A DNA stretch of 64,000 bases from Escherichia phage DCP80. The stretch lies in the sequence record PQ671644.1. The stretch is one strand, 5' to 3'. The notes under the pieces are model-generated. The model did no database searches and had not been told where the DNA came from. It saw only the letters and a list, made by a program, of their open reading frames with translations. Position 1 is the stretch's first letter; the number at the start of each line of letters is the position of its first letter. Shown here in pieces: positions 8,994 to 61,540 of this stretch. The translations under genes and the position numbers were made by a program.

Positions 8994-9040
8994 NNNNNNN
9001 NNNNNNNNNNNNNNNNNNNNNNNNNNNNNNNNNNNNNNNN
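8994..9040. other. assembly gap (N-run); junction between inverted homologous blocks
   Basis: 47 Ns; flanking sequence truncates gene 39 and its downstream ORF. Confidence 0.95.
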
Positions 9041-17790: not shown

Positions 17791-17800
17791 NNNNNNNNNN
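17791..17800. other. assembly gap (N-run)
   Basis: 10 Ns; gene content changes abruptly across it. Confidence 0.95.
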
Positions 17801-23360: not shown

Positions 23361-24320
23361 ATGTTAACGGTTAATGACAAAGAATTCATGTGGGAACAAA
23401 AATACCGCCCAGGTACATTATCAGAGTGTATTCTCCCGGCTCATGATAAAGAAACATTAGAGGCGATTGTTAAAAAAGGTTTGATTCCTAACTTGATTCT
23501 GGTCAGTAGTTCCCCTGGTACTGGTAAGACAACAGTTGCAAAAGCTATGTGCGCAGATACGAATTCTGATATGCTGTTTGTTAACGGCTCCGATTGCCGA
23601 ATTGACTTTGTGCGTAATGAATTGACTCGCTTTGCATCATCCAAATCAATCGAAGGTCGCCGTAAGGTAATTGTTATCGATGAGTTCGACCGTGCAGGTC
23701 TGGCAGAATCACAACGGCATCTTCGTAGCTTTATGGAAGCTTATTCAAGCAACTGTTCAATCATTATGACCGCGAACAATATTGATGGCATCATCACTCC
23801 GTTGCAGTCTCGTTGTCGCGTCATTAAGTTTGGTGAAGCAACTCCGGCTGACCAGACTACCATGATGAAAGAGATGATTCATCGTGCAGTCGCGATATGT
23901 AAAAACGAAGGCGTTGAAATCGAAGACCTGAAAGTTGTTGCTGCTTTGGTTAAGCATAACTTCCCGGACCTGCGTAAGACAATTAATGAGCTTGACCGTT
24001 ACTCTGCAAAGGGTGTTATCGATTCCGGTATTCTAAGCATCGTGACAAACAATCGCACGCCAATTGATGATGTGATTGATGCCCTTAAGGACCGTAACTT
24101 TAAAGTTCTCCGTGGTCTGGCTCCTAAGCATGCAAATGATTATTCAAGCTTCATTGCAAAGCTGGCTGATGAAATGTATGGCAAACTGACTGGTGCAAGT
24201 ATTATCCGCATGTATGAGATTGTAGGTGAGAATAATCAGTATCATGGCATTGCAGCCAATACCGAAGTTCACTTGACTTATCTGTTTGCTCAACTGGCTG
24301 GGGAAATGAAATGGCTGTAA
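23361..24320 (+). CDS. 44: clamp loader large subunit gp44 (AAA+)
   Basis: 319 aa; WEQKYRP, Walker A SPGTGKTT, Walker B VIVIDEFDR, sensor SRC; synteny 45-44-62. Confidence 0.9.
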   Translation: MLTVNDKEFMWEQKYRPGTLSECILPAHDKETLEAIVKKGLIPNLILVSSSPGTGKTTVAKAMCADTNSDMLFVNGSDCRIDFVRNELTRFASSKSIEGRRKVIVIDEFDRAGLAESQRHLRSFMEAYSSNCSIIMTANNIDGIITPLQSRCRVIKFGEATPADQTTMMKEMIHRAVAICKNEGVEIEDLKVVAALVKHNFPDLRKTINELDRYSAKGVIDSGILSIVTNNRTPIDDVIDALKDRNFKVLRGLAPKHANDYSSFIAKLADEMYGKLTGASIIRMYEIVGENNQYHGIAANTEVHLTYLFAQLAGEMKWL

Positions 24321-24742
24321 GTCTCTTTGATGATGACGTTCAATTAAACGAACATGAGGTTGCGTGGAAATCACGCGACTTTAACAAAATTCAGGAATTG
24401 TCCGATTCATACAAAGAGAAAGCAGAAAATGAATTGTTCGCGATTCTTAACGACATAACCGTTAGCAAAAAACCACGGAACCTGATTCAATCGGAAAACT
24501 ACAATAAATTCTGGCTGGACAATGCCTTGAGTCAACATGTCGATTGCATCATGCAGGTGAACGTGATGAACTTAATCGGTTCTGGATTAACAGACCAACA
24601 GCATTATAATTATTTGCTGCATGCGGTTCCACAAGGCAAGCGTTATGGCAAATGGGCGAAGGCTGAACCGGATGTAGTCAGCGTCCAGCTTGTGTTAAAG
24701 CTTTTGATGAAATATTATACAATTAATGCAGATGATGCTTTG
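24311..24742 (+). CDS. 62: clamp loader small subunit gp62, 3' end lost in gap
   Basis: MAVSLFDDDVQLNEHEVAW...KEKAENE...MNLIGSGL...NYLLHAVPQGKRYGKWAK matches recalled T4 gp62; ATG overlaps gp44 stop. Confidence 0.8.
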
Positions 24743-24760
24743 NNNNNNNNNNNNNNNNNN
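24743..24760. other. assembly gap (N-run)
   Basis: 18 Ns; strand and gene content switch across it. Confidence 0.95.
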
Positions 24761-24910
24761 ACGAATCTGACGTTTAGTCGGTCGCGCAACGTAAGCTTGT
24801 GTAGTTACTCGTCCAAAAACACCATACTTAGGCGAAGGAGTATCAATAAAGACTTCCCACTGGCAAGAGTAGCTATATATTGCTTTAGAGAATTGGGTCA
24901 AAACAAACAT
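24761..24910 (-). CDS. hypothetical protein, 3' end lost in gap
   Basis: MFVLTQFSKAIYSYS...; ATG embedded in TTAATATG junction with upstream gene. Confidence 0.4.
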
Positions 24911-24911
24911 A

Positions 24912-25271
24912 TTAACCTCGCTTCATGAAGGCATTAAAAATCTGGTCATCAATATCAGTAGGCGGTTCTTGAGCTTTGACCCAAGCCCCTTCCAGAATGT
25001 CATTCGCTTCAGTAGATAACATGACCCCAATTTCGGGGTTTCCCGTTATCCAGGCGGCGCAATCACGTACATTCTTTTTATCAAATGGATAGCCACGAGT
25101 ATCTTCATAAGGTCCATTCATTACCAGGAATGAGCGAGCCTTTATGATAATATCATCTTTAACGATAATATAACCAATCGCTTGATTAAACTGAGGGTCG
25201 CGGAATTCATAATGAGCATTACCATCATTATTGCTCGCCAGTTCAAAATTCAGAAAATTGTAATCATTCAT
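24912..25271 (-). CDS. hypothetical protein with shared C-terminal module DDQIFNAFMKR
   Basis: 119-aa ORF; last 13 codons plus stop/start junction are nucleotide-identical to the end of the upstream gene. Confidence 0.5.
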   Translation of the reverse strand: MNDYNFLNFELASNNDGNAHYEFRDPQFNQAIGYIIVKDDIIIKARSFLVMNGPYEDTRGYPFDKKNVRDCAAWITGNPEIGVMLSTEANDILEGAWVKAQEPPTDIDDQIFNAFMKRG

Positions 25272-25272
25272 A

Positions 25273-25707
25273 TTAATCTCGCTTCATGAAGGCATTAAAA
25301 ATCTGGTCGTCAACTGAATATACAGGGGTTTCCAGAAGTTTCAAAAGACTGTTTTTGATGTACTTACCCGGGATACCCTTAACAATACTGTCATTCAACT
25401 CATTATCAGGGTTGATGTCTTTAAATTCAAACCCGTCAAACTCAACCTTGTCAGGAATACCGTCAGCGAAAAAATAAACCAATTGGTGCATTGTATTGCG
25501 CGAAAATAATTTAGACTTGACCGCAATAAGTTCTTGCCAATGGTTTAATTCTTTGTTAAGAAGTTTATGAGCAAACGTAATTCTATTATCACTATCAACA
25601 AGAAAATAACCCAGGTATTGAATCTCGTCGCTCCAAAACACCCTGTATGCCTGCGCATTTGGATTTTTACAACGAAGTTTTTTGATAACCAAATTTCTGT
25701 TAATCAT
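25273..25707 (-). CDS. hypothetical protein with shared C-terminal module DDQIFNAFMKR
   Basis: Probable start MINRNLVIKK at 25707, 1 nt after sp stop, GGTGA RBS; track ORF extends into sp. Confidence 0.5.
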   Translation of the reverse strand: MINRNLVIKKLRCKNPNAQAYRVFWSDEIQYLGYFLVDSDNRITFAHKLLNKELNHWQELIAVKSKLFSRNTMHQLVYFFADGIPDKVEFDGFEFKDINPDNELNDSIVKGIPGKYIKNSLLKLLETPVYSVDDQIFNAFMKRD

Positions 25708-25708
25708 T

Positions 25709-26002
25709 TTATTCACCTGTAACCCATTGAACAATTTTGCTATTGTCAAATGAAGCATCGCAATACAGAATATAGTTATACTGCATAACGTCACCAGAAG
25801 ACAATTGGTCAGATACTTCTTTAACCATATCAGGGCGGTCACGTTTGGTTATGTTCATGATATCAGCACGAATCTGGGTTTCAACTTCAGATTGCTCTGC
25901 TGTCATAGACCATTCACAAAGGTTTTTATCAAGCCCAGCAGTAACTGGAGCTGTACCACATGATGCTACGGTAAGAATTGCTGCAATAATTAACTTTTTC
26001 AT
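25709..26002 (-). CDS. sp: Spackle-like periplasmic protein (lysozyme inhibitor / superinfection exclusion)
   Basis: 97 aa; signal peptide MKKLIIAAILTVASC, then ...DKNLCEWSMTAEQSEVETQIRADIMNI...GDVMQYNYILYCD resembles recalled T4 Sp; lies between 41 and 61. Confidence 0.6.
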   Translation of the reverse strand: MKKLIIAAILTVASCGTAPVTAGLDKNLCEWSMTAEQSEVETQIRADIMNITKRDRPDMVKEVSDQLSSGDVMQYNYILYCDASFDNSKIVQWVTGE

Positions 26003-26062
26003 AATGTTCTCCTCAGTAGTTGATATGGATAATATACTGCATTATCCCTTTGATGTAAACTG

Positions 26063-26266
26063 TTATTTTTCGTTAGAACGATAATCACATTCAAAAACTT
26101 TATTGCCATTAACAAAGGCTTTAACCAGCGCATTATTCACTTCTGCATACTGCACTGTAACCCATTCAATCATATTTTTGTCACTGACATCCAGGGCGGT
26201 TTCTTTGGTAAACATATTACCATTTTCAAACCAACCAATAAACACTACGTTCTCTAATTTATACAT
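26063..26266 (-). CDS. dmd: Dmd-like antitoxin (discriminator of mRNA degradation)
   Basis: 67 aa; VVFIGWFENGNMFTKE...QYAEVNNALVKAFV resembles recalled T4 Dmd; synteny near sp. Confidence 0.5.
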   Translation of the reverse strand: MYKLENVVFIGWFENGNMFTKETALDVSDKNMIEWVTVQYAEVNNALVKAFVNGNKVFECDYRSNEK

Positions 26267-26584
26267 TTAGATTTCCTCACAAAACGCCCAAGCGGCGTGA
26301 TAAACTGTTGCGCCTTTAGTATCATTTAAACAAACCACGTCAACAGGTGCAATCACACGATAAAGACGGGGTTCTCCTCCATATGAGCGAGCTGCTCTTC
26401 CTGCATAGATACGCGCCAAACCAATATCTTCAGTAAAAAACACACGCCCTAAATTTTTCTTACGTCCAACTTCTGACAGAACACCAGTTGCATCAGGAGG
26501 ACAAAGCATATTTTGGATTCCAGCATTAGAGCTTGACCCATGATAATAAACTTTGTATTCTGCCTTGCAATCAATGGTTTTCAT
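26267..26584 (-). CDS. small protein with PARP-like NAD-binding motifs (candidate minimal ADP-ribosyltransferase-fold protein)
   Basis: 105 aa; YYHGSSSNAGI (H-G-S), GRVFFTEDIGLARIYAG (aromatic-rich strand), GGEPRLYRV (candidate catalytic E); motif-level only. Confidence 0.35.
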   Translation of the reverse strand: MKTIDCKAEYKVYYHGSSSNAGIQNMLCPPDATGVLSEVGRKKNLGRVFFTEDIGLARIYAGRAARSYGGEPRLYRVIAPVDVVCLNDTKGATVYHAAWAFCEEI

Positions 26585-26620
26585 TTTATTCTCCAGTAGT
26601 TGATAGAGTCATTATAACAT

Positions 26621-26644
26621 AAGAAAAAGGGGCTGTAAGCCCCT
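26621..26644 (-). terminator. rho-independent terminator
   Basis: Minus strand AGGGGC-TTACA-GCCCCT followed by TTTTTCTT. Confidence 0.5.
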
Positions 26645-26652
26645 TTGTTCAC

Positions 26653-26955
26653 TTACGCCAACTCATAGTTGTGCATAGTCAGACAACGAATTTTCCCAGT
26701 AGTTGGGTGCATAACAGTCACACTAATTGTGTAATCATCACACACGTTAACAAAAGGTTCAGCGATAACATATACTGCCCCACCCGCCAACAGGTATTCA
26801 CGAAGAGAGCTGCGAACAGATGAAGGTTGAACATCGCTTTTGAGCTTTATTAATTTACCAGTTTGAATGCCTGATGCGATAAGAGCAGCACAGTTTTCAT
26901 CACGGCGAGCGAATTGTCCAAAATAGTAACGATTCATGTCGGTTTGATTAAACAT
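26653..26955 (-). CDS. hypothetical protein
   Basis: 100-aa ORF. Confidence 0.45.
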   Translation of the reverse strand: MFNQTDMNRYYFGQFARRDENCAALIASGIQTGKLIKLKSDVQPSSVRSSLREYLLAGGAVYVIAEPFVNVCDDYTISVTVMHPTTGKIRCLTMHNYELA

Positions 26956-27033
26956 ATGGTTTTCCTTTTAACAGTTGGTTTATTGTGTAACTCAGTATGA
27001 AATCATTATGTCCTAAGACAAGGGGCTTGTACA

Positions 27034-27282
27034 CTATTTTAATTCATTAATTAAATGAAAATCTTGTGCATTGAAAGTAATGAAAAAATAATCATTCCCT
27101 TCAACTGAAGCATGACAGGCAACACTACACCAGCGCCTTGCTCTGTTCAAGGAGCAATCCAAAATTTTAAAAGGCTTCAGACCAACAATGGCAGCTGTTC
27201 TTTTATTATGCTCACAAATATCAGCATACTTTTGGAGAGCTTCTTCAGATTTGAACTGGTAATGCACATTAACTAATAACAT
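27034..27282 (-). CDS. hypothetical protein
   Basis: 82-aa ORF, Cys-rich. Confidence 0.45.
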   Translation of the reverse strand: MLLVNVHYQFKSEEALQKYADICEHNKRTAAIVGLKPFKILDCSLNRARRWCSVACHASVEGNDYFFITFNAQDFHLINELK

Positions 27283-27347
27283 TTTATTATCCTCATCAGT
27301 AGTTGATGGGATAATAGTACACCCTTTTTATGGTGATGTAAACCTCT

Positions 27348-27376
27348 AAAATGAAAAAGACCCGAAGGGTCTTTAG
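27348..27376 (-). terminator. rho-independent terminator with UUCG tetraloop after gene 41
   Basis: Minus strand AAAGACCC-TTCG-GGTCTTT then TTCATTT; overlaps gp41 stop. Confidence 0.5.
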
Positions 27377-28812
27377 AATTTCATTTGAGCAGCAAGGTCG
27401 TCCAGGTCGCTCCTGTTGACCCTGGTTTGTCTATTCATTTCAGCCTGGCGATTCATCTCACCGGTGGCTTCTTTAACCGTAGGGCCTTGTTTAGGAGCTG
27501 AATCATCATCAACCTCGTACCAGCGCTGATTACCTTTCTTAACACCCATCTTGAATTTATTATAGTAGTTCTTATCGCCATAACGAGACTTAAGCTGTTT
27601 GATTAACTGCAGACCCATTTGAGCGAATTCTTCAGTCTCAACAACACCCAACATAAAGTCGGCCGTGTGAGCAATACCAAAGGATTCTGCGATGTCAGCC
27701 ATATCAATCTCAGCTGCAACGTTCGCGCCCCTGGTTGTCTGTGCTGCAGTCCACAGGACCACATTTTTCTCAACAGCCAGACCACGAAGTTCTTCTGCAA
27801 CCATCTTAATCAGGCCGTAACTGTTTTCGGTAAACGTTTTCAGTCTTGAGCTTGCACAGATTGCCAGGTAGTCAACAATAATCACATCCGGCACAAACCC
27901 TTGCTTCAGTTTGTATTCATTCAATAATGCACGGAAGGTATCTGCATGAGCACCGCCAGTTGGATATTGTTTTATCTTCAGAGTCCCAAGAGTCCCTGAT
28001 GCCCGCCATTTTTCCATCTTAGCTTTGTATTCTGCCCATGATATATGACCTTCATCAATATCATCCAGAGACACATCCAGCAAGTTGGCATCAATACGTT
28101 TGGCACATACTTCTTCAGCCATTTCCATGCTTATATAAAGCACGTTATGACCAGTCTGAAGATAGTCGGCCGCTAACGAACAAAGTCCCAGAGATTTCCC
28201 GACGTTTGTCCCGGCCAGTAAAACGTTCTCTGTGCCGTACTCAACTCCACCCTTCGTAATTTTATTCAGGATGTTAATACGGAACGGAACCTTCTTCGAT
28301 TTGTTCAGATAAGTCTGGAATCGAGCTTCGTAATCGTTTAACCAGTCATGGCCCAGTGCAGAGTCAAAACAGATAGACAATGCATCGCGCATGATATCAG
28401 GGATAGCACCAATATCTGGGATTCGTTTATCACGTTTATCTTTCGGAAGTTCGGCATTACTCTGGATTTCGATAATCCTGGATGTGGCATTGAACATCGC
28501 AGACTTCTGTACATACTTCTCGGTTTCTCTAACCAACCATTCCTGGTCTTCTGGAGTATCAGCCAGAACTCCTAAGAGTTTCTTTGTGCCTTCATATTCG
28601 ACTTCAGAAAGGTCAGAACTGTCAAGCGCAATATCAAGTGCAGTCTTAGTTGGTACCGCTTGATATTCTTTTACGTGTTCGTTAATCGTATTAAAAAGGG
28701 TCTTTGCAGGACCCTTTTCAAAATATGTGTTATTCAGATATGGCCAGACTTTAACAAAATATTCCTTGTTAAAGAGTAGCTGGGATAAAATAGTTTCTAC
28801 CACTTCCACCAC
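27373..28812 (-). CDS. 41: replicative DNA helicase gp41 (DnaB-like)
   Basis: 479 aa; Walker A GTNVGKS, Walker B IIVDYL, ...LGTLKIKQYPTGGA..., RecA-like C-terminal domain; matches recalled T4 gp41. Confidence 0.9.
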   Translation of the reverse strand: MVEVVETILSQLLFNKEYFVKVWPYLNNTYFEKGPAKTLFNTINEHVKEYQAVPTKTALDIALDSSDLSEVEYEGTKKLLGVLADTPEDQEWLVRETEKYVQKSAMFNATSRIIEIQSNAELPKDKRDKRIPDIGAIPDIMRDALSICFDSALGHDWLNDYEARFQTYLNKSKKVPFRINILNKITKGGVEYGTENVLLAGTNVGKSLGLCSLAADYLQTGHNVLYISMEMAEEVCAKRIDANLLDVSLDDIDEGHISWAEYKAKMEKWRASGTLGTLKIKQYPTGGAHADTFRALLNEYKLKQGFVPDVIIVDYLAICASSRLKTFTENSYGLIKMVAEELRGLAVEKNVVLWTAAQTTRGANVAAEIDMADIAESFGIAHTADFMLGVVETEEFAQMGLQLIKQLKSRYGDKNYYNKFKMGVKKGNQRWYEVDDDSAPKQGPTVKEATGEMNRQAEMNRQTRVNRSDLDDLAAQMKF

Positions 28813-29141
28813 CTCTTTTTCATTTTAATTTTATCAATTTCATCTTGTATTTGCATTGTAACACACTTTTCTACATGCACTGCAAGCTCCGCTTTGCGGT
28901 CTTCAGAAGGGGTGCCGAAATCAACTGAAACTTTTCCAGATGGTTCAATTTTAATTCCGGTTACGTACACAATGTGACTGGACCCATCAGGGAGTGATAA
29001 CAGAATTTCCTGCCGTACAGTTCCCATGGATTGCCGGATAATCTCCAAACTTTTTTCGTAGTAAGGTACAGAAGGAGCCTTAGCTCCCTCCGCATCTTTC
29101 TCGAAATTATCTAAATCAGATAAATCGATATCATTCATCAA
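28797..29141 (-). CDS. 40: gp40-like protein
   Basis: 114-aa ORF between uvsX and 41 with overlapping junctions; synteny-based. Confidence 0.55.
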   Translation of the reverse strand: MMNDIDLSDLDNFEKDAEGAKAPSVPYYEKSLEIIRQSMGTVRQEILLSLPDGSSHIVYVTGIKIEPSGKVSVDFGTPSEDRKAELAVHVEKCVTMQIQDEIDKIKMKKRWWKW

Positions 29142-30309
29142 GGTCTTCCATCATATCTAAATCGTTTTCGATATCTGCCGCAGACGGTTTTGTCTTACCT
29201 TCAGGAGCAGTGTATTTTTCAACCTTGGAGGCAATAAGCGCATCAACTTCGGCATCAACAACAGCATTGCTATCGATTGCACCCAGTTGGTAATGGCGTT
29301 TGATTGCATCACGGAAAGGTTCGTGCTTGAACAGCGGGCCCCAGAATTCGGTGCAGTTAGTATCTTTTGCGCGCCATGATTTTTCTTCGCGGACCATTTC
29401 ACCGGTCTCAACATCAAGATATTCACGGTTATACCAACCAACTTTTGGTTTCACCACAAATCCGATTTCCATTGCCATATCAAGCAGGCCAGAATACGGG
29501 TCAATCCCACCATCGAATTTTACATCAATGAAGAATTTACTTTTCTCTTTGACCATACGAGATTTTTCGGCGTTCAGAACAAATTGGAAGCCTTCAAGTT
29601 CTTTACCAGTTTCTTTAATCTGGCGTTTGCCGATAATGAATACGGTGTCCGCAGAATACATAACACCTGTACCGCCGGTCATAACGGTTTTACTGTACAT
29701 CTCAATCGTCTCGATTGTATGGTTAACCGCGACACAAGGAATATCCTTGATGCTAAAATACGGGGTAACAATACGGAACAGAGATTTCAGGGATTTGGCA
29801 CGAGTCATATCACCAACGACTTTTTCGTTCATCGCATCTTCTGTTTCTTTTTTCGACGCCATGTTACCGATTGAGTCAATAAAAATAATGACTTTTTCAC
29901 CACGCTCAATTGCTTCAAGCTGGTTAACCATATCAACTTTCAATTGTTCAACCGACTGGATTGGTGTATGGATAACACGTTCCGGGTCAACTTTCATTGC
30001 ACGAAGATATGCTTCTGTGATACCAAATTCTGAATCATAGAACAAACAGATTGCATCGGGGTATTTGTTCATATATGCAGAGACCATCGTTAAACCCATA
30101 TTGGATTTAAAGTGTTTTGACGGACCAGCAAAAATAGTCAAACCTGACTGCATACCACCATCTAGTGCACCGCTGATTGCAATGTTCAGCATCGGGATTT
30201 TTGTACGAACTACATCTTTACCATTAAAGAACTTGGACTTGGTAAGAGTCGCGGTCATTTTGGATGTAGAAGCTTTAATCAAACGGGATTTCAAATCTGC
30301 AATAGACAT
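29131..30309 (-). CDS. uvsX: recombinase UvsX (RecA-like)
   Basis: 392 aa; LKSRLIKASTSK...KIPMLNIAISGALDGGMQSGLTIFAGPSKHFKSN...LFYDSEFGIT...MVREEKSWRAKDTNCTEFWGPLFKHEPFRDAIKRHYQLG matches recalled T4 UvsX. Confidence 0.9.
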   Translation of the reverse strand: MSIADLKSRLIKASTSKMTATLTKSKFFNGKDVVRTKIPMLNIAISGALDGGMQSGLTIFAGPSKHFKSNMGLTMVSAYMNKYPDAICLFYDSEFGITEAYLRAMKVDPERVIHTPIQSVEQLKVDMVNQLEAIERGEKVIIFIDSIGNMASKKETEDAMNEKVVGDMTRAKSLKSLFRIVTPYFSIKDIPCVAVNHTIETIEMYSKTVMTGGTGVMYSADTVFIIGKRQIKETGKELEGFQFVLNAEKSRMVKEKSKFFIDVKFDGGIDPYSGLLDMAMEIGFVVKPKVGWYNREYLDVETGEMVREEKSWRAKDTNCTEFWGPLFKHEPFRDAIKRHYQLGAIDSNAVVDAEVDALIASKVEKYTAPEGKTKPSAADIENDLDMMEDLDE

Positions 30310-30362
30310 TCATTTTTTCCATAGGCACCATCATATTTTTCTCACAGGTTTAAGATAGGATA

Positions 30363-30389
30363 ATTATATCACTGTATTTTTAGAGCAAT
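30363..30389 (-). promoter_or_regulatory. possible middle promoter (MotA-box-like plus -10) upstream of uvsX
   Basis: Minus strand TTGCTCTA, 12 nt, TATAAT; one mismatch to the recalled MotA box consensus. Confidence 0.3.
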
Positions 30390-30651
30390 TAACGATTGAA
30401 TCCACGATTAATTGCACGTTCAACAATCTTCCGGGTCTGACGTTTGTCCCACCAGTACATAAACCCAATACCAAATGCAGACAACAGCCATAAGCTAATC
30501 AATAACATACCAATCATAATATTCTTCTCACAGTTCAGGGAAATTTAGTAAACGTTACCACGTTTCCAGTTTTCTTCAGCCAAATGCTTATTACGCTTTT
30601 CTAATAGCAACAAACCAATTACTGTTACAACAATCAGAAGTAATAATAACA

Positions 30652-30886
30652 TCAGTTAATACCTTGGCGTGCTTTCTCTTTAGCTACACATTTATTAATA
30701 TAGCTCAGACGGTTTTGAGCAGAACGCTGATACATATCACGATACTCATTAGCTTTTGGAGAACCCGTCTCCGCTGCCTGATAAGCTTCCGCGCGCATGA
30801 TGTTTATCTGCATATTGATGTATGACATGCAGACCTGCGAAATCTGGTTAACAGTATCCAGGTCATTTTGTCGCTTGGTTTCTGCT
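30652..30886 (-). CDS. 3' end of unidentified gene, 5' part lost in gap
   Basis: Open frame ending at stop 30652, running into N-run. Confidence 0.35.
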
Positions 30887-30940
30887 NNNNNNNNNNNNNN
30901 NNNNNNNNNNNNNNNNNNNNNNNNNNNNNNNNNNNNNNNN
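30887..30940. other. assembly gap (N-run)
   Basis: 54 Ns. Confidence 0.95.
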
Positions 30941-36510: not shown

Positions 36511-36520
36511 NNNNNNNNNN
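36511..36520. other. assembly gap (N-run)
   Basis: 10 Ns; cuts gene 34. Confidence 0.95.
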
Positions 36521-41759: not shown

Positions 41760-41800
41760 NNNNNNNNNNNNNNNNNNNNNNNNNNNNNNNNNNNNNNNNN
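41760..41800. other. assembly gap (N-run)
   Basis: 41 Ns. Confidence 0.95.
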
Positions 41801-41818
41801 TGGGTCAAAACAAACATA

Positions 41819-42178
41819 TTAACCTCGCTTCATGAAGGCATTAAAAATCTGGTCATCAATATCAGTAGGCGGTTCTTGAGCTTTGACCCAAGCCCCTTCC
41901 AGAATGTCATTTGCTTCAGTAGATATCATGACCCCAATTTCAGGGTTTCCGGTTATCCATACTGCACAATCGCGGACATTCTTTTTATCAAATGGATAAC
42001 CACGATTATCTTCACAAGGCCCATTCATTGTCATAAATGAACGAGCCTTTATGATAACATCATCTTTAACGATAATATAACCAATCGCCTGATTATAACG
42101 AGGCTCACGAAATTCATAGTGAGCATTACCATTATTATTGCTCACCAGTTCAAAATTCAGAAAATTATAATAACTCAT
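41819..42178 (-). CDS. hypothetical protein with shared C-terminal module (copy 2)
   Basis: 119 aa, homolog of 24912-25271. Confidence 0.5.
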   Translation of the reverse strand: MSYYNFLNFELVSNNNGNAHYEFREPRYNQAIGYIIVKDDVIIKARSFMTMNGPCEDNRGYPFDKKNVRDCAVWITGNPEIGVMISTEANDILEGAWVKAQEPPTDIDDQIFNAFMKRG

Positions 42179-42179
42179 A

Positions 42180-42620
42180 TTAATCTCGCTTCATGAAGGC
42201 ATTAAAAATTTGGTCGTCAACTGAATATACAGGGGTTTCCAGAAGTTTCAAAAGACTGTTTTTAATGTACTTACCCGGGATACCCATATTAACAATACTG
42301 TCATTCAATTCATTATCAGGGTTGATGTCTTTAAATTCAAACCCATCAAATTCAACCTTGTCAGGAATACCATCAGCGAAAAAATAAACCAATTGGTGCA
42401 TTGTATTGCGCGAAAATAATTTAGACTTGACCGCAATAAGTTCTTGCCAATGGTTTAATTCTTTGTTAAGAAGTTTATGAGCAAACGTAATTCTATTATC
42501 ACTATCAACAAGAAAATAACCCAGGTATTGAATGGGTTCGTCGCTCCAAAACATCCTGTATGCTTGTGCATTTTGATTTTTACAACGAAGTTTTTTGATA
42601 ACTAGAGTTCTGTTAATCAT
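42180..42620 (-). CDS. hypothetical protein with shared C-terminal module (copy 2)
   Basis: Homolog of 25273-25707 with two in-frame indels (DEPIQY vs DEIQY; VNMGIPG vs VKGIPG). Confidence 0.5.
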   Translation of the reverse strand: MINRTLVIKKLRCKNQNAQAYRMFWSDEPIQYLGYFLVDSDNRITFAHKLLNKELNHWQELIAVKSKLFSRNTMHQLVYFFADGIPDKVEFDGFEFKDINPDNELNDSIVNMGIPGKYIKNSLLKLLETPVYSVDDQIFNAFMKRD

Positions 42621-42621
42621 T

Positions 42622-42915
42622 TTATTCACCTGTAACCCATTGAACAATCTTGCTGTTGTCAAATGAAGCATCGCAATACAGAACATAGTTATACTGCATA
42701 ACATCACCAGAAGTCAATTGGTCAGATACTTCTTTAACCATATCAGGACGGTCACGTTTAGTAATATTCATGATGTCAGCATAAATCTGATGTTCAACAT
42801 CAGCCTGGTCAGCAGTCATGGACCACTCGCAAAGGTCTTTATCAAGTCCAGCAGTAACTGGAGCTGTGCCACATGATGCTACGGTAAGAATTGCTGCGAT
42901 TAATAACTTTTTCAT
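42622..42915 (-). CDS. sp: Spackle-like periplasmic protein (copy 2)
   Basis: 97 aa, homolog of 25709-26002. Confidence 0.6.
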   Translation of the reverse strand: MKKLLIAAILTVASCGTAPVTAGLDKDLCEWSMTADQADVEHQIYADIMNITKRDRPDMVKEVSDQLTSGDVMQYNYVLYCDASFDNSKIVQWVTGE

Positions 42916-42973
42916 TTCAATCTCCTCAGTAGTTGATAGGGATAATATACTGCATTATCCCTATGTTGTACAC

Positions 42974-43177
42974 TTATTTTTCGTTAGAACGATAATCATA
43001 TTCAAAAACTTTATTGTCATTAACAAAGGCTTTAACCAGTGCATTATTCACTTCTGCATACTGCACTGTAATCCATTCAATCATATTTTTGTCACTGACA
43101 TCTAGCGCGGTTTCTTTGGTAAACATATTACCATTTTCAAACCAACCAATAAACACTACGTTCTCTAATTTATACAT
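42974..43177 (-). CDS. dmd: Dmd-like antitoxin (copy 2)
   Basis: 67 aa, homolog of 26063-26266. Confidence 0.5.
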   Translation of the reverse strand: MYKLENVVFIGWFENGNMFTKETALDVSDKNMIEWITVQYAEVNNALVKAFVNDNKVFEYDYRSNEK

Positions 43178-43495
43178 TTAGATTTCCTCACAAAACGCCC
43201 AGGCGGCGTGATAAACTGTTGCACCTTTAGTGTCATTTAAACAAACCACGTCAACAGGTGCAATCACACGATAAAGACGGGGTTCTCCTCCATATGAGCG
43301 AGCTGCTCTTCCTGCATAGATACGCGCCAAACCAATATCTTCAGTAAAAAACACACGCCCTAAATTTTTCTTACGCCCAACTTCTGACAGAACACCAGTT
43401 GCATCAGGAGGACAAAGCATATTTTGGATTCCAGCATTAGAGCTTGAGCCATGATAATAAACTTTGTATTCTGCCTTGCAATCAATGGTTTTCAT
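43178..43495 (-). CDS. PARP-like-motif small protein (copy 2)
   Basis: 105 aa, identical in translation to 26267-26584. Confidence 0.35.
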   Translation of the reverse strand: MKTIDCKAEYKVYYHGSSSNAGIQNMLCPPDATGVLSEVGRKKNLGRVFFTEDIGLARIYAGRAARSYGGEPRLYRVIAPVDVVCLNDTKGATVYHAAWAFCEEI

Positions 43496-43563
43496 TTTAT
43501 TCTCCAGTAGTTGATAGGGTCATTATAACATAAGAAAAAGGGGCTTACAGCCCCTTTGTTCAC

Positions 43564-43866
43564 TTACGCCAACTCATAGTTGTGCATAGTCAGACAACGA
43601 ATTTTCCCAGTAGTTGGGTGCATAACAGTCACACTAATTGTGTAATCATCACACACGTTAACAAAAGGTTCGGCGATAACATATACTGCCCCACCTGCCA
43701 ACAGGTACTCACGAAGAGAGCTGCGAACAGATGAAGGTTGAACATCGCTTTTGAGCTTTATTAATTTACCAGTTTGAATGCCTGATGCGATAAGAGCAGC
43801 ACAGTTTTCATCACGGCGAGCGAACTGACCAAAATAGTAACGGTTCATATCGGTTTGATTAAACAT
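43564..43866 (-). CDS. hypothetical protein (copy 2)
   Basis: 100 aa, homolog of 26653-26955. Confidence 0.45.
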   Translation of the reverse strand: MFNQTDMNRYYFGQFARRDENCAALIASGIQTGKLIKLKSDVQPSSVRSSLREYLLAGGAVYVIAEPFVNVCDDYTISVTVMHPTTGKIRCLTMHNYELA

Positions 43867-43944
43867 ATGGTTTTCCTTTTAACAGTTGGTTTATTGTGTA
43901 ACTCAGTATGGAATCATTATGTCCTAAGACAAGGGGCTTGTACA

Positions 43945-44193
43945 CTATTTTAATTCATTAATTAAATGAAAATCTTGTGCATTGAAAGTAATGAAAAAAT
44001 AATCATTCCCTTCAACTGAAGCATGACAGGCAACACTACACCAGCGCCTTGCTCTGTTCAAGGAGCAATCCAAAATTTTAAAAGGCTTCAGACCAACAAT
44101 GGCAGCTGTTCTTTTATTATGCTCACAAATATCAGCATACTTTTGGAGAGCTTCTTCAGATTTGAACTGGTAATGCACATTAACTAATAACAT
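43945..44193 (-). CDS. hypothetical protein (copy 2)
   Basis: 82 aa, homolog of 27034-27282. Confidence 0.45.
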   Translation of the reverse strand: MLLVNVHYQFKSEEALQKYADICEHNKRTAAIVGLKPFKILDCSLNRARRWCSVACHASVEGNDYFFITFNAQDFHLINELK

Positions 44194-44281
44194 TTTATTA
44201 TCCTCATCAGTAGTTGATGGGATAATAGTACACCCTTTTTATGGTGATGTAAACCTCTAAATGAAAAAGACCCGAAGGTCT

Positions 44282-45721
44282 TTAGAATTTCATTTGAGCA
44301 GCAAGGTCGTCCAGGTCGCTCCTGTTGACCCTGGTTTGTCTATTCATTTCAGCCTGACGATTCATCTCACCGGTGGCTTCTTTAACCGTAGGGCCTTGTT
44401 TAGGAGCTGAATCATCATCAACCTCGTACCAGCGCTGATTACCTTTCTTAACACCCATCTTGAATTTATTATAGTAGTTCTTATCGCCATAACGAGACTT
44501 AAGCTGTTTGATTAACTGTAGTCCCATTTGAGCGAATTCTTCGGTCTCAACAACACCCAACATAAAGTCGGCCGTGTGAGCAATACCAAAGGATTCTGCG
44601 ATGTCAGCCATATCAATCTCAGCTGCAACGTTCGCACCCCTGGTTGTCTGCGCTGCAGTCCACAGGACTACATTTTTCTCAACAGCCAGACCACGAAGTT
44701 CTTCTGCAACCATCTTAATCAGGCCGTAACTGTTTTCGGTAAACGTTTTCAGTCTTGAGCTTGCACAGATTGCCAGGTAGTCAACAATAATCACATCCGG
44801 CACAAACCCTTGCTTCAGTTTGTATTCATTCAATAATGCACGGAAGGTATCTGCATGAGCGCCGCCAGTTGGATATTGTTTTATCTTCAGAGTCCCAAGA
44901 GTCCCGGAAGCACGCCACTTTTCCATCTTAGCTTTATATTCCGCCCATGATATATGACCTTCATCAATATCATCCAGAGATACATCCAGCAAGTTGGCAT
45001 CAATACGTTTGGCACATACTTCTTCAGCCATTTCCATGCTTATATAAAGAACATTATGACCAGTCTGAAGATAGTCAGCAGCTAACGAACAAAGTCCAAG
45101 AGATTTACCGACGTTTGTCCCGGCCAGTAAAACGTTCTCTGTACCGTACTCAACCCCACCCTTTGTGATTTTATTCAGGATGTTAATACGGAACGGAACC
45201 TTCTTCGATTTGTTCAGATAAGTCTGGAATCGAGCTTCGTAATCGTTTAACCAGTCATGGCCCAGAGCAGAGTCAAAACAGATAGACAATGCATCGCGCA
45301 TGATGTCGGGGATAGCACCAATATCCGGGATTCGTTTATCACGTTTATCTTTCGGAAGTTCGGCATTACTCTGGATTTCGATAATCCTGGATGTGGCATT
45401 GAACATCGCAGACTTCTGCACATACTTCTCGGTTTCTTTAACCAACCATTCCTGGTCTTCTGGAGTATCGGCCAGGACTCCTAAGAGTTTCTTTGTGCCT
45501 TCATATTCGACTTCAGAAAGGTCAGAACTGTCGAGCGCGATATCAAGTGCAGTCTTAGTTGGTACCGCTTGATATTCTTTTACGTGTTCGTTAATCGTAT
45601 TAAAAAGAGTCTTCGCGGGACCCTTTTCAAAATATGTGTTATTCAGATACGGCCAGACTTTAACAAAATATTCCTTGTTAAAGAGTAGCTGGGATAAAAT
45701 AGTTTCTACCACTTCCACCAC
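44282..45721 (-). CDS. 41: replicative DNA helicase gp41 (copy 2)
   Basis: 479 aa, near-identical to 27373-28812. Confidence 0.9.
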   Translation of the reverse strand: MVEVVETILSQLLFNKEYFVKVWPYLNNTYFEKGPAKTLFNTINEHVKEYQAVPTKTALDIALDSSDLSEVEYEGTKKLLGVLADTPEDQEWLVKETEKYVQKSAMFNATSRIIEIQSNAELPKDKRDKRIPDIGAIPDIMRDALSICFDSALGHDWLNDYEARFQTYLNKSKKVPFRINILNKITKGGVEYGTENVLLAGTNVGKSLGLCSLAADYLQTGHNVLYISMEMAEEVCAKRIDANLLDVSLDDIDEGHISWAEYKAKMEKWRASGTLGTLKIKQYPTGGAHADTFRALLNEYKLKQGFVPDVIIVDYLAICASSRLKTFTENSYGLIKMVAEELRGLAVEKNVVLWTAAQTTRGANVAAEIDMADIAESFGIAHTADFMLGVVETEEFAQMGLQLIKQLKSRYGDKNYYNKFKMGVKKGNQRWYEVDDDSAPKQGPTVKEATGEMNRQAEMNRQTRVNRSDLDDLAAQMKF

Positions 45722-46050
45722 CTCTTTTTCATTTTAATTTTATCAATTTCATCTTGTATTTGCATTGTAACACACTTTTCTACATGCACAGCAAGCTCCG
45801 CTTTGCGGTCTTCAGAAGGGGTGCCGAAATCAACTGAAACTTTTCCAGATGGTTCAATTTTAATTCCGGTTACGTACACAATGTGACTGGACCCATCAGG
45901 GAGTGATAACAGAATTTCCTGTCGTACGGTTCCCATGGATTGCCGGATAATCTCCAAACTTTTTTCGTAGTAAGGTACAGAAGGAGCCTTAGCTCCCTCC
46001 GCATCTTTCTCGAAATTATCTAAATCAGATAAATCGATATCATTCATCAA
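45706..46050 (-). CDS. 40: gp40-like protein (copy 2)
   Basis: 114 aa, identical in translation to 28797-29141. Confidence 0.55.
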   Translation of the reverse strand: MMNDIDLSDLDNFEKDAEGAKAPSVPYYEKSLEIIRQSMGTVRQEILLSLPDGSSHIVYVTGIKIEPSGKVSVDFGTPSEDRKAELAVHVEKCVTMQIQDEIDKIKMKKRWWKW

Positions 46051-47030
46051 GGTCTTCCATCATATCTAAATCGTTTTCGATATCTGCCGCAGACGGTTTT
46101 GTCTTACCTTCAGGAGCAGTGTATTTTTCAACCTTGGAGGCAATAAGCGCATCAACTTCGGCATCAACAACAGCATTGCTATCGATTGCACCCAGCTGGT
46201 AATGGCGTTTGATTGCGTCACGGAAAGGTTCGTGCTTGAACAACGGGCCCCAGAATTCGGTGCAGTTAGTATCTTTTGCGCGCCATGATTTTTCTTCGCG
46301 GACCATTTCACCGGTCTCAACATCAAGATATTCACGGTTATACCAACCAACTTTCGGTTTCACCACAAATCCGATTTCCATTGCCATATCAAGCAGGCCA
46401 GAATACGGGTCAATACCGCCATCGAATTTTACATCAATGAAGAATTTACTTTTCTCTTTGACCATACGAGATTTTTCGGCGTTCAGAACAAATTGGAAAC
46501 CTTCAAGTTCTTTACCAGTTTCTTTAATCTGGCGTTTGCCGATAATGAATACGGTGTCTGCGGAATACATAACACCTGTACCACCGGTCATAACGGTTTT
46601 GCTATACATCTCAATCGTCTCGATTGTATGGTTAACCGCGACACAAGGAATATCCTTGATGCTAAAATATGGAGTAACAATACGGAACAGAGATTTCAGG
46701 GATTTGGCACGAGTCATATCGCCAACAACTTTTTCGTTCATCGCATCTTCTGTTTCTTTTTTCGACGCCATGTTACCGATTGAGTCAATAAAGATAATGA
46801 CTTTTTCACCACGCTCAATTGCTTCAAGCTGGTTAACCATATCAACTTTCAATTGTTCAACCGACTGGATTGGTGTGTGGATAACACGTTCCGGGTCAAC
46901 TTTCATTGCACGAAGATAGGCTTCTGTGATACCAAATTCTGAATCATAGAACAAACAGATTGCATCGGGGTATTTGTTCATATATGCAGAGACCATCGTT
47001 AAACCCATATTGGATTTAAAGTGTTTTGAC
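46040..47030 (-). CDS. uvsX: recombinase UvsX (copy 2), 5' end lost in gap
   Basis: C-terminal ~330 aa, near-identical to the 29131-30309 copy. Confidence 0.85.
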
Positions 47031-47080
47031 NNNNNNNNNNNNNNNNNNNNNNNNNNNNNNNNNNNNNNNNNNNNNNNNNN
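47031..47080. other. assembly gap (N-run)
   Basis: 50 Ns. Confidence 0.95.
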
Positions 47081-52285: not shown

Positions 52286-52300
52286 NNNNNNNNNNNNNNN
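52286..52300. other. assembly gap (N-run)
   Basis: 15 Ns; joins gene 47 to an unrelated late-gene block. Confidence 0.95.
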
Positions 52301-57004: not shown

Positions 57005-57040
57005 NNNNNNNNNNNNNNNNNNNNNNNNNNNNNNNNNNNN
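57005..57040. other. assembly gap (N-run)
   Basis: 36 Ns. Confidence 0.95.
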
Positions 57041-61504: not shown

Positions 61505-61540
61505 ANNNNNNNNNNNNNNNNNNNNNNNNNNNNNNNNNNN
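61505..61540. other. assembly gap (N-run)
   Basis: 36 Ns. Confidence 0.95.

Follow-up and report, generated by a model that had tools for sequence, protein, structure and literature searches.

The stretch of Escherichia phage DCP80 analysed here (record PQ671644.1; 64,000 nucleotides, referred to below as the window) contains two consecutive genes, encoding proteins of 144 and 119 amino acids (aa), that end in the same module of 42 nucleotides (nt) and whose products give a BLASTP alignment limited to the last 27 residues. We report the distribution of this module, the selection acting on it and the recombination that takes place at it, and argue that the two genes are likely to be tandem, highly diverged relatives of the phage anti-toxin protein AdfA, with which they have their C-terminal peptide, or 'tail', in common. 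The closest genomes are those of the Gapriverviruses, which are SP18-like T4-type phages, with P896 being 97.7% and SP18 93.7% identical. The gene order is dmd, sp (spackle), the gene of 144-146 aa (family C in what follows), the gene of 119 aa (family B), a DUF7279 gene, gp033, 61.1 and the primase gene, gp61. In T4, the slot after sp is occupied by gene 61.2, whose product matches the Pfam AdfA family (PF23813, E 1e-135), and 61.1 follows directly. The tail-bearing genes of the window lie in the same place, directly downstream of spackle and upstream of 61.1 and the primase, and sp is their left-hand neighbour in every genome examined. AdfA (T4 gp61.2) is a published inhibitor of the toxin DarT1 (Johannesman et al. 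2025, PMC11825919) and the dmd-tifA-adfA region has been proposed as an anti-toxin island (PMC11825919, PMC9391042).

Read on the minus strand, the module comprises the last 13 codons of the upstream gene, (V/I)DDQIFNAFMKR(D/G), which take up 39 of its 42 nt, then the TAA stop codon and the junction with the next ATG. The heptamer TAATATG closes both tail-bearing genes and holds the start codon of the gene downstream. In module copy 1, the final codons CGA GAT give a weak Shine-Dalgarno sequence, GAG, for the 119-aa gene, and in copy 2 the codons CGA GGT provide GAGG. The 42-nt pattern is matched four times in the window (Table 1), three times without mismatch and once, at 42179-42220, with a single mismatch, where no match is expected (0 matches in 100 dinucleotide-preserving shuffles). 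This confirms what a preliminary description of the locus had claimed, namely that a 42-nt repeat, with its (G/D)-ended peptide and the TAATATG junction, closes both genes.

The window is a scaffold containing ten runs of N, at 8994-9040, 17791-17800, 24743-24760, 30887-30940, 36511-36520, 41760-41800, 47031-47080, 52286-52300, 57005-57040 and 61506-61540. Its segments 24761-30886 (W1) and 41801-47030 (W2) are one locus from two related Gapriverviruses, 89-98% identical, of which W1 resembles P896 and W2 resembles SP18. Since the scaffold joins two strains across runs of N, the repeats found in it at a spacing of ~16.9 kb are strain duplicates and not genomic duplications, and the 'second copy' of the preliminary description is the same locus of a second, SP18-like phage. 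The tail pair of W2 is, therefore, an ortholog from another strain, which repeats the observation and does not constitute independent evidence. An open reading frame (ORF) of 205 aa at 24311-24928 on the plus strand, which crosses the run of N at 24743-24760 and fuses a gp62-like clamp-loader frame to the antisense of the DUF7279 region, is a scaffolding artefact.

Table 1. Coordinates of the modules, genes and mosaic patch in the window
Feature	Position	Strand	Remarks
Module copy 1	25272..25313	-	last 13 codons of the 144-aa gene (VDDQIFNAFMKRD), TAA stop, T before the ATG of the 119-aa gene
Module copy 2	24911..24952	-	last 13 codons of the 119-aa gene (IDDQIFNAFMKRG), TAA stop, T preceding the DUF7279 start codon
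Family C gene, 144 aa (phrog_8539)	25273..25707	-	follows spackle directly; slot of T4 61.2/adfA
Family B gene, 119 aa (phrog_4122)	24912..25271	-	orthologue of the 118-aa gene in T2, slur04 and RB32
Mosaic patch	25005..25267	-	28 of the 31 differences between W1 and P896 within 24761-26105; body of gene B; flanks near-identical
Spackle (sp)	25709..26002	-	PF25676, E 1.7e-42
DUF7279 gene, 5' part (SP18 gp034 homologue)	24761..24910	-	right-hand neighbour; cut by the run of N at 24743-24760
Family C gene, 146 aa, second contig (SP18-like strain)	42180..42620	-	ends in the module at 42179-42220
Family B gene, 119 aa, MSYYNF allele, second contig	41819..42178	-	ends in the module at 41818-41859; contig starts at 41801

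Distribution of the tail and conservation of its peptide

Searches with blastn locate the module in 556 phage records, among them T4, where it lies at the 61.2/61.1 junction, and tblastn locates the tail peptide in 707 records, nearly all of them listed as enterobacterial phages and a few labelled Pseudomonas or Serratia. On the loci that were fetched, the genera Tequatro-, Mosig-, Dhaka- and Gaprivervirus are confirmed. A back-translated DDQIFNAFM pattern matches 12 metagenome loci, all with the same three gene families directly after sp, and has 0 matches in 185,579 bacterial and archaeal genomes (one per species). This search for the 3' module on other genes, which the preliminary description had proposed, finds it confined, in the phage records and metagenome loci alike, to three families at one locus: AdfA (208-216 aa, phrog_3781), B (118-125 aa) and C (143-148 aa). 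An internal MDQIFNAFM in an unrelated high-GC phage (locus L021) was treated as a chance match.

The three families are seen in every combination save that of AdfA with C. T4 carries AdfA only; slur04 and the loci L015, L029, L030 and L037 carry AdfA and B; T2 and locus L011 carry B only; JS98 and other Dhakaviruses carry C; and SP18, P896, VR20, VR25 and the window carry C and B. In the T2 record (L026, AP018813.1), a family-B gene of 118 aa with a full tail is found at 1189-1545, directly after sp; T2 has been reported as being without an adfA homolog, and adfA as being encoded by only 13 of 17 tested Tevenvirinae (PMC11825919). The same study describes AdfA as without homology to known families, and in the literature searched we found no mention of the conserved tail or of the shorter paralogues. 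In phage TH44 (L017, MT446415.1, 2175-2545), a frameshift splits gene B into ORFs of 46 and 71 aa; the record is marked UNVERIFIED, and the split gene is either a pseudogene or a sequencing error. The locus of phage phiD1 (L004, HE956711.1, 2098-3043) contains four tails, with a 33-aa fragment of B between two copies of B. Because the extra unit contains ambiguous bases, these four tails were set aside; the unit may reflect a tandem duplication left unresolved or an error of assembly.

The core of the tail, DDQIFNAFM, is invariant in all copies, across three gene families and four genera, and the three residues that follow it vary only as K/N, R/K and G/D; the proteins of the window end, as AdfA does, in DDQIFNAFM(K/N)R(G/D). 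Synonymous sites within the tail do vary (GAT/GAC, CAA/CAG, ATT/ATA, GCC/GCT/GCA, TTT/TTC and CGA/AGA), as does the stop codon (TAA/TGA). Tails of the Tequatrovirus and Gaprivervirus types differ at 4-8 of 33 nt (mean 6.1), almost all of these differences being synonymous, and this distance between genera is approximately that predicted from independent codon choice (5.3 of 11 codons). The combination of fixed amino acids with changing synonymous sites argues against an RNA or DNA element that spans the whole module and supports the view that purifying selection holds the tail at the level of the peptide. The suggestion of a conserved C-terminal tag, made in the preliminary description, has thereby gained evolutionary support. 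Only the last 8-12 nt of the module have an obvious role as nucleic acid, GAG(G/A)TTAATATG (the last codons and the stop) being the Shine-Dalgarno sequence and start junction of the next gene. A rule by which GAG would always be followed by A (final D) in front of gene B and by G (final G) in front of other genes was considered as a mark of cassette boundaries and dropped; it is true in the Gapriverviruses and is broken in VR26 (A before DUF7279) and in L015, L029, L030 and L037 (G before B).

A scan of the region for promoters gives 13 sigma-70-like sites, compared with 5.9 +/- 2.6 expected. One such site, TTGAAA-16-TATATT at 25344-25317 on the minus strand, with matches at 10 of 12, stops 4 nt short of module 1, module 2 having no such neighbour. 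It sits in the block encoding SLLKLLETPVYS, which is invariant across family C, even in a member that is 37% identical overall, and may serve gene B as an internal promoter or be due to chance.

Relationship of families B and C to AdfA

AdfA, or anti-DarT factor A, was reportedly described by LeRoux et al. in 2022. A hidden Markov model (HMM) of family B from which the tail had been removed scores every one of 22 AdfA sequences higher than any of 415 decoy ORFs, with a best E of 1.4e-5, and matches each AdfA (T4 gp61.2 and its relatives, P0054 among them) twice, at residues 39-74 and 113-176. The two halves of AdfA align weakly to one another (hhalign P 0.0023), and these alignments suggest that AdfA is a tandem internal duplication of a B-like domain of ~100 aa. 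In the reverse direction, a tail-less AdfA HMM places 14 members of B and C above the best decoy, and in Smith-Waterman shuffle tests Tequatrovirus B against AdfA reaches p=0.0015 and C against AdfA p=0.0185. Tail-less hhalign comparisons of B with C, of B with the N-terminal and with the C-terminal half of AdfA, and of the two halves with one another (P 0.0008-0.0024) all align a hairpin motif of the form hydrophobic-G-(Y/F)-h-h-V-x-(D/N)-(D/N)-x-I, that is GY(I/F)(I/L)V-x-(D/N)(D/N)-x-I; the comparison of C with AdfA is weak (P 0.017-0.05). Furthermore, the 118-aa B orthologues of the Tequatroviruses pass the PF23813 model, with 34 bits over HMM positions 113-211. Judged from these profiles, family B is a relative of AdfA, homologous to both of its halves without the tail, and family C is probably a very diverged, single-domain relative.

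AlphaFold2 models of B and C both show the order E-E-E-E-E-H (E, strand; H, helix), followed by a linker of low confidence, after which the tail forms a separate short helix at the terminus. This predicted helix is amphipathic: its hydrophobic residues fall at i, i+1, i+4 and i+5, its N-cap is acidic and its end basic. When the models are compared with BFVD using Foldseek, the best match to C outside its own family is a member of B, and a member of C ranks third for B, the alignments being full-length. Such an architecture is typical of proteins in which a recognition domain that varies is linked to a docking peptide that does not. The tail is probably a docking helix; it also serves as recombination homology.

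A number of results weigh against so close a grouping of the three families. The tail-less HMM of family C reaches only E 0.08 and places one family member above the best decoy, the hhalign probabilities are <=24%, and tail-less B and C compared pairwise are indistinguishable from shuffles (p=0.30). The Pfam AdfA model has no match to any tail-less sequence; against PF23813, with its gathering score of 27 bits, the 119-aa protein scores 18.1 bits (residues 106-119 only) and the 144-aa protein 13.1 bits (residues 131-143 only). Confidence in the AlphaFold2 models is low to moderate (pLDDT, the predicted local distance difference test, is 54 for B and 70 for C, and 35-54 in the tail itself), and the Foldseek scores are not independent of the tail, since the identical tail is included in the alignments. 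A search of PDB sequences with AdfA found no relative, and the function of B and C is predicted.

The preliminary description had called the two genes otherwise unrelated. This stands for the pairwise comparisons, by BLASTP and by shuffle tests, and falls at the level of the families, where the tail-less B HMM finds every AdfA, the link to C being weaker; the picture is largely one of diverged paralogues whose C-terminus is the best-conserved part. More distant relatives did not emerge from other searches: an exhaustive phmmer search of 1.84 billion representatives with the 119-aa query returned family B relatives only, and word-based homologue searches returned close relatives only. Two long repeat proteins from the phmmer search (P0064 and P0066) scored via many weak stretches and were discarded as spurious once their sequences had been read.

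The window proteins thus resemble AdfA in their position directly after sp, in their identical C-terminal peptide and in the beta-hairpin motif, and family B does so in matching both AdfA halves without tails. They differ from it in being single-domain proteins, of 119 and 144 aa as opposed to 208-216 aa, in falling below the Pfam threshold with a match to the model in the tail only, and, for the 144-aa protein, in a homology that is suggestive only. Binding and neutralisation of DarT1 are known for AdfA proper only (PMC11825919).

Recombination at the tails

The two tails of W1 differ at 1 of the 11 codons of DDQIFNAFMKR where 5.3 differences are expected from the codon usage of the phage (P(<=1) = 0.005), and those of slur04 differ at none (P(0) = 0.0004). 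Across 14 genomes with two tails, the mean difference within a genome is 2.0 of 33 nt, the same as the polymorphism found inside a lineage and much less than what separates one lineage from another. Both tails of a genome have lineage-specific states in common, including a non-synonymous one, K (AAG) in the Gapriverviruses as against N (AAT) in the Tequatroviruses. The tails, in short, group by phage lineage and not by gene family. The divergence of the gene bodies is too great for the whole gene to have been duplicated recently, so that sequence must pass between the tails, whether through gene conversion or through recombination in the tail when a cassette is gained. The pattern resembles the concerted evolution (gene conversion) of tandem paralogues, in that the tails follow the lineage of the genome and the gene bodies have diverged beyond recognition; it differs in that the homogenised tract is very short and coincides with the selected peptide, for which reason conversion and selection are not fully separable here.

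Gene B is present or absent both in Tequatrovirus and in the Dhaka/Gaprivervirus group, and always has a tail on each side. The single tail of VR26 is identical to the upstream tail of VR25 at 48 of 48 nt, shows 6 differences from the downstream tail of VR25, and runs straight into the DUF7279 gene; identity over the following 900 nt is 98.3%. Alleles of B are also replaced in place. Almost all of the differences between W1 and P896 at the locus fall into a mosaic patch (Table 1), in which 27 codons are changed, 17 synonymously and 10 non-synonymously, and this ratio points to an imported allele rather than to local hypermutation. In a three-way comparison with SP18, P896 equals W1 at 17 of 17 informative positions upstream, up to 25303 inside module 1; from 25267 on it no longer follows W1 and mostly agrees with SP18. 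The upstream edge of the patch lies in, or adjoining, module 1. Other deletions start exactly at TAA(T/A)ATG: the DUF7279 gene is missing in ECML-359 (L018, 2510-2560) and in locus L033 (1511-1560), a deletion with AATATG microhomology to the start of gp033, and in an RB69-like contig (L028, 1757-1850) the gp033-like gene is missing, with the indel at the tail junction. T4-type phages are known to recombine efficiently at homologies of <50 bp, and even of 6-10 bp (PMC2839356, PMC9391042). Recent horizontal transfer of B between genera was considered and is unsupported, the B bodies being 43% identical compared with 55-72% for the neighbouring genes.

Two known systems of gene turnover in T4-type phages invite comparison. 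In the PeSL cassettes, intergenic units of a promoter and a stem-loop are associated with modular shuffling (Arbiol et al. 2010, PMC2839356; Comeau et al. 2014, PMC4122927). As there, the non-essential genes of a hyperplastic region stand between short, conserved direct repeats, at which the breakpoints of insertions, deletions and replacements lie, and the homologous recombination of the phage itself is sufficient. The tail repeat differs in consisting of coding sequence and a ribosome-binding site and in being confined to one gene family at one locus. Of four PeSL features, only the bracketing of variable ORFs with breakpoints is found here; an intergenic position, a sigma-70-like early promoter within the repeat and a stem-loop terminator are not, and we have rejected a PeSL or promoter-terminator cassette on the grounds that the module is coding and has neither stem-loop nor internal promoter. 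In the dmd-tifA island of T4, amplification and deletion of anti-defence genes are driven by microhomology (Srikant et al. 2022, PMC9391042). The island is the same, genes are likewise gained and lost between short repeats, and the deletion in ECML-359 uses AATATG; the tail repeat, however, is a coding, maintained sequence of 42-47 nt and not a fortuitous one of 6-10 bp. The features of a site-specific cassette system with sites like the attC of integrons are likewise missing: the module contains no foldable inverted repeat, and there is no recombinase among the neighbours dmd, sp, DUF7279, 61.1 and the primase.

Interpretation and alternative explanations

We consider it likely that B and C are tandem, diverged paralogues of the AdfA superfamily whose tail is frozen by selection and kept alike by recombination, and that the gene between the tails turns over as a tail-bounded cassette. 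On this explanation, the Gaprivervirus version of the dmd-tifA-sp-adfA anti-toxin island would hold two very diverged members of the superfamily side by side, each protein being built of three parts: a fast-evolving, beta-rich body that would probably recognise the target, a flexible linker, and the invariant amphipathic C-terminal helix of 13 residues, DDQIFNAFM(K/N)R(G/D), held by purifying selection on the peptide. The tail would most likely dock on a partner common to all members of the family, and its last two codons and the stop also make up the ribosome-binding site and the junction at which the next gene starts. At the level of the DNA, the same ~42-47 nt lie on both sides of B as a direct repeat, and it is from this arrangement that we derive both the likeness of the copies, which a recombination-proficient phage would maintain by concerted evolution, and the reshuffling of B, the repeats providing the homology by which the gene that they enclose is lost, gained or exchanged for another allele. 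The data show the repeat and its distribution, the invariance of the peptide in the face of synonymous drift, the concerted evolution, the positions of indels and crossovers and the homology of B to AdfA outside the tail, whereas the homology of C to AdfA, the docking of the tail and an anti-toxin role of B and C are inferred.

The preliminary description had offered a recombination scar as one explanation of the repeat. It is supported in part: the tails do recombine, as their concerted evolution, the gain and loss of B exactly between them and the allele swap starting in module 1 demonstrate, but the tail is no scar on unrelated genes, being found only on three families at one locus. In its pure form, in which the genes are unrelated and 42 nt of homology, encoding a functionless peptide, were left or carried along by the short-homology insertion of a foreign cassette (B), this explanation would account for the presence and absence of B in two genera, always bracketed by the module, for a replacement patch that begins in module 1, for VR26, which looks like VR25 minus B and cut exactly at the junction, and for the lack of pairwise similarity between B and C outside the tail, and it accords with the efficient short-homology recombination of T4-type phages mentioned above. 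A functionless scar should decay, however, and the peptide is invariant across four genera despite synonymous change; it is confined to three families at one locus and is absent from the bacterial and archaeal genomes scanned, and the homology of B to AdfA extends well beyond it. Moreover, phages with a single tail-bearing gene (T4, JS98 and the RB69-like phages) keep the tail, which is thus independent of the insertion event. We hold the pure scar to be decidedly unlikely.

A second possibility, that it is the RNA or DNA of the module that is conserved (for translational coupling or re-initiation, as a promoter-terminator cassette of the PeSL type or as a protein-binding site) and the peptide is a by-product, could draw on the GAG(G/A) junction, which serves whichever gene follows, four different downstream genes abutting it; on a nucleotide identity within genomes that is above what the peptide requires; and on the segment having less structure than its shuffled versions, a property to be expected where translation is initiated. 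The differences between genera, mostly synonymous at fixed residues, are nevertheless the signature of selection on a protein, the module has no stable RNA fold (z-scores +0.76, +0.70 and -0.53), the scan finds no promoter- or terminator-like site inside either copy, and the ribosome-binding site accounts for its last 8-12 nt only, so that we regard this possibility as very unlikely. That the repeat is an artefact of mis-joined contigs in an N-padded scaffold might be suspected from the presence of contigs from at least two strains and from the runs of N, one at a distance of 150 nt from module 2 and another 18 nt away from the copy at 41818. The two-tail layout, with identical spacing of 361 nt, is found in many complete genomes, including P896, SP18, VR20, VR25 and slur04, and these genomes already refute an assembly artefact, to which we attach a vanishingly small chance.

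The explanation in terms of diverged AdfA paralogues can be extended to a bolder and, in our estimation, rather unlikely one, in which the tail is a portable docking peptide that would tether interchangeable, fast-evolving inhibitor domains (AdfA, B and C) to one conserved partner, the same DNA being the homology linker by which bodies are swapped, stacked or dropped without a recombinase. The partner could be a replisome or single-stranded-DNA-associated protein at the sites where DarT-type toxins act. Were this the case, the locus would correspond to the cassette array of an integron or of the PeSL type, but with coding sequence as its repeat and counter-defence genes as its cargo, and phages reported to be without adfA (T2, the Dhaka- and Gapriverviruses) would possess AdfA-like inhibitors of a single domain that have gone unrecognised and differ in their toxin specificity.

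Few phage inhibitors of the DarTG toxin-antitoxin defence have been characterised, and AdfA is one of them. Our results suggest that the adfA slot of phages reported to be without the gene holds shorter, very diverged relatives with the exact C-terminal peptide of AdfA, which makes families B and C candidates for further anti-toxin factors and the tail a 13-residue mutational target for learning how the AdfA family works. They also present a case in which a selected coding segment doubles as the homology for reshuffling counter-defence genes. Current views are refined by this and none is overturned; what is new is the set of unrecognised AdfA-family members, which should be of moderate interest to the field of phage counter-defence.

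Further along the island, an ORF of 105 aa at 26267-26584 on the minus strand adjoins dmd and is conserved in JS98, SP18 and P896, with no match in Pfam. Its Y-H-G... and later motifs resemble those of a small Arr-type ADP-ribosyltransferase; such an enzyme, if it is one, would be notable inside an island that counters an ADP-ribosylating toxin.

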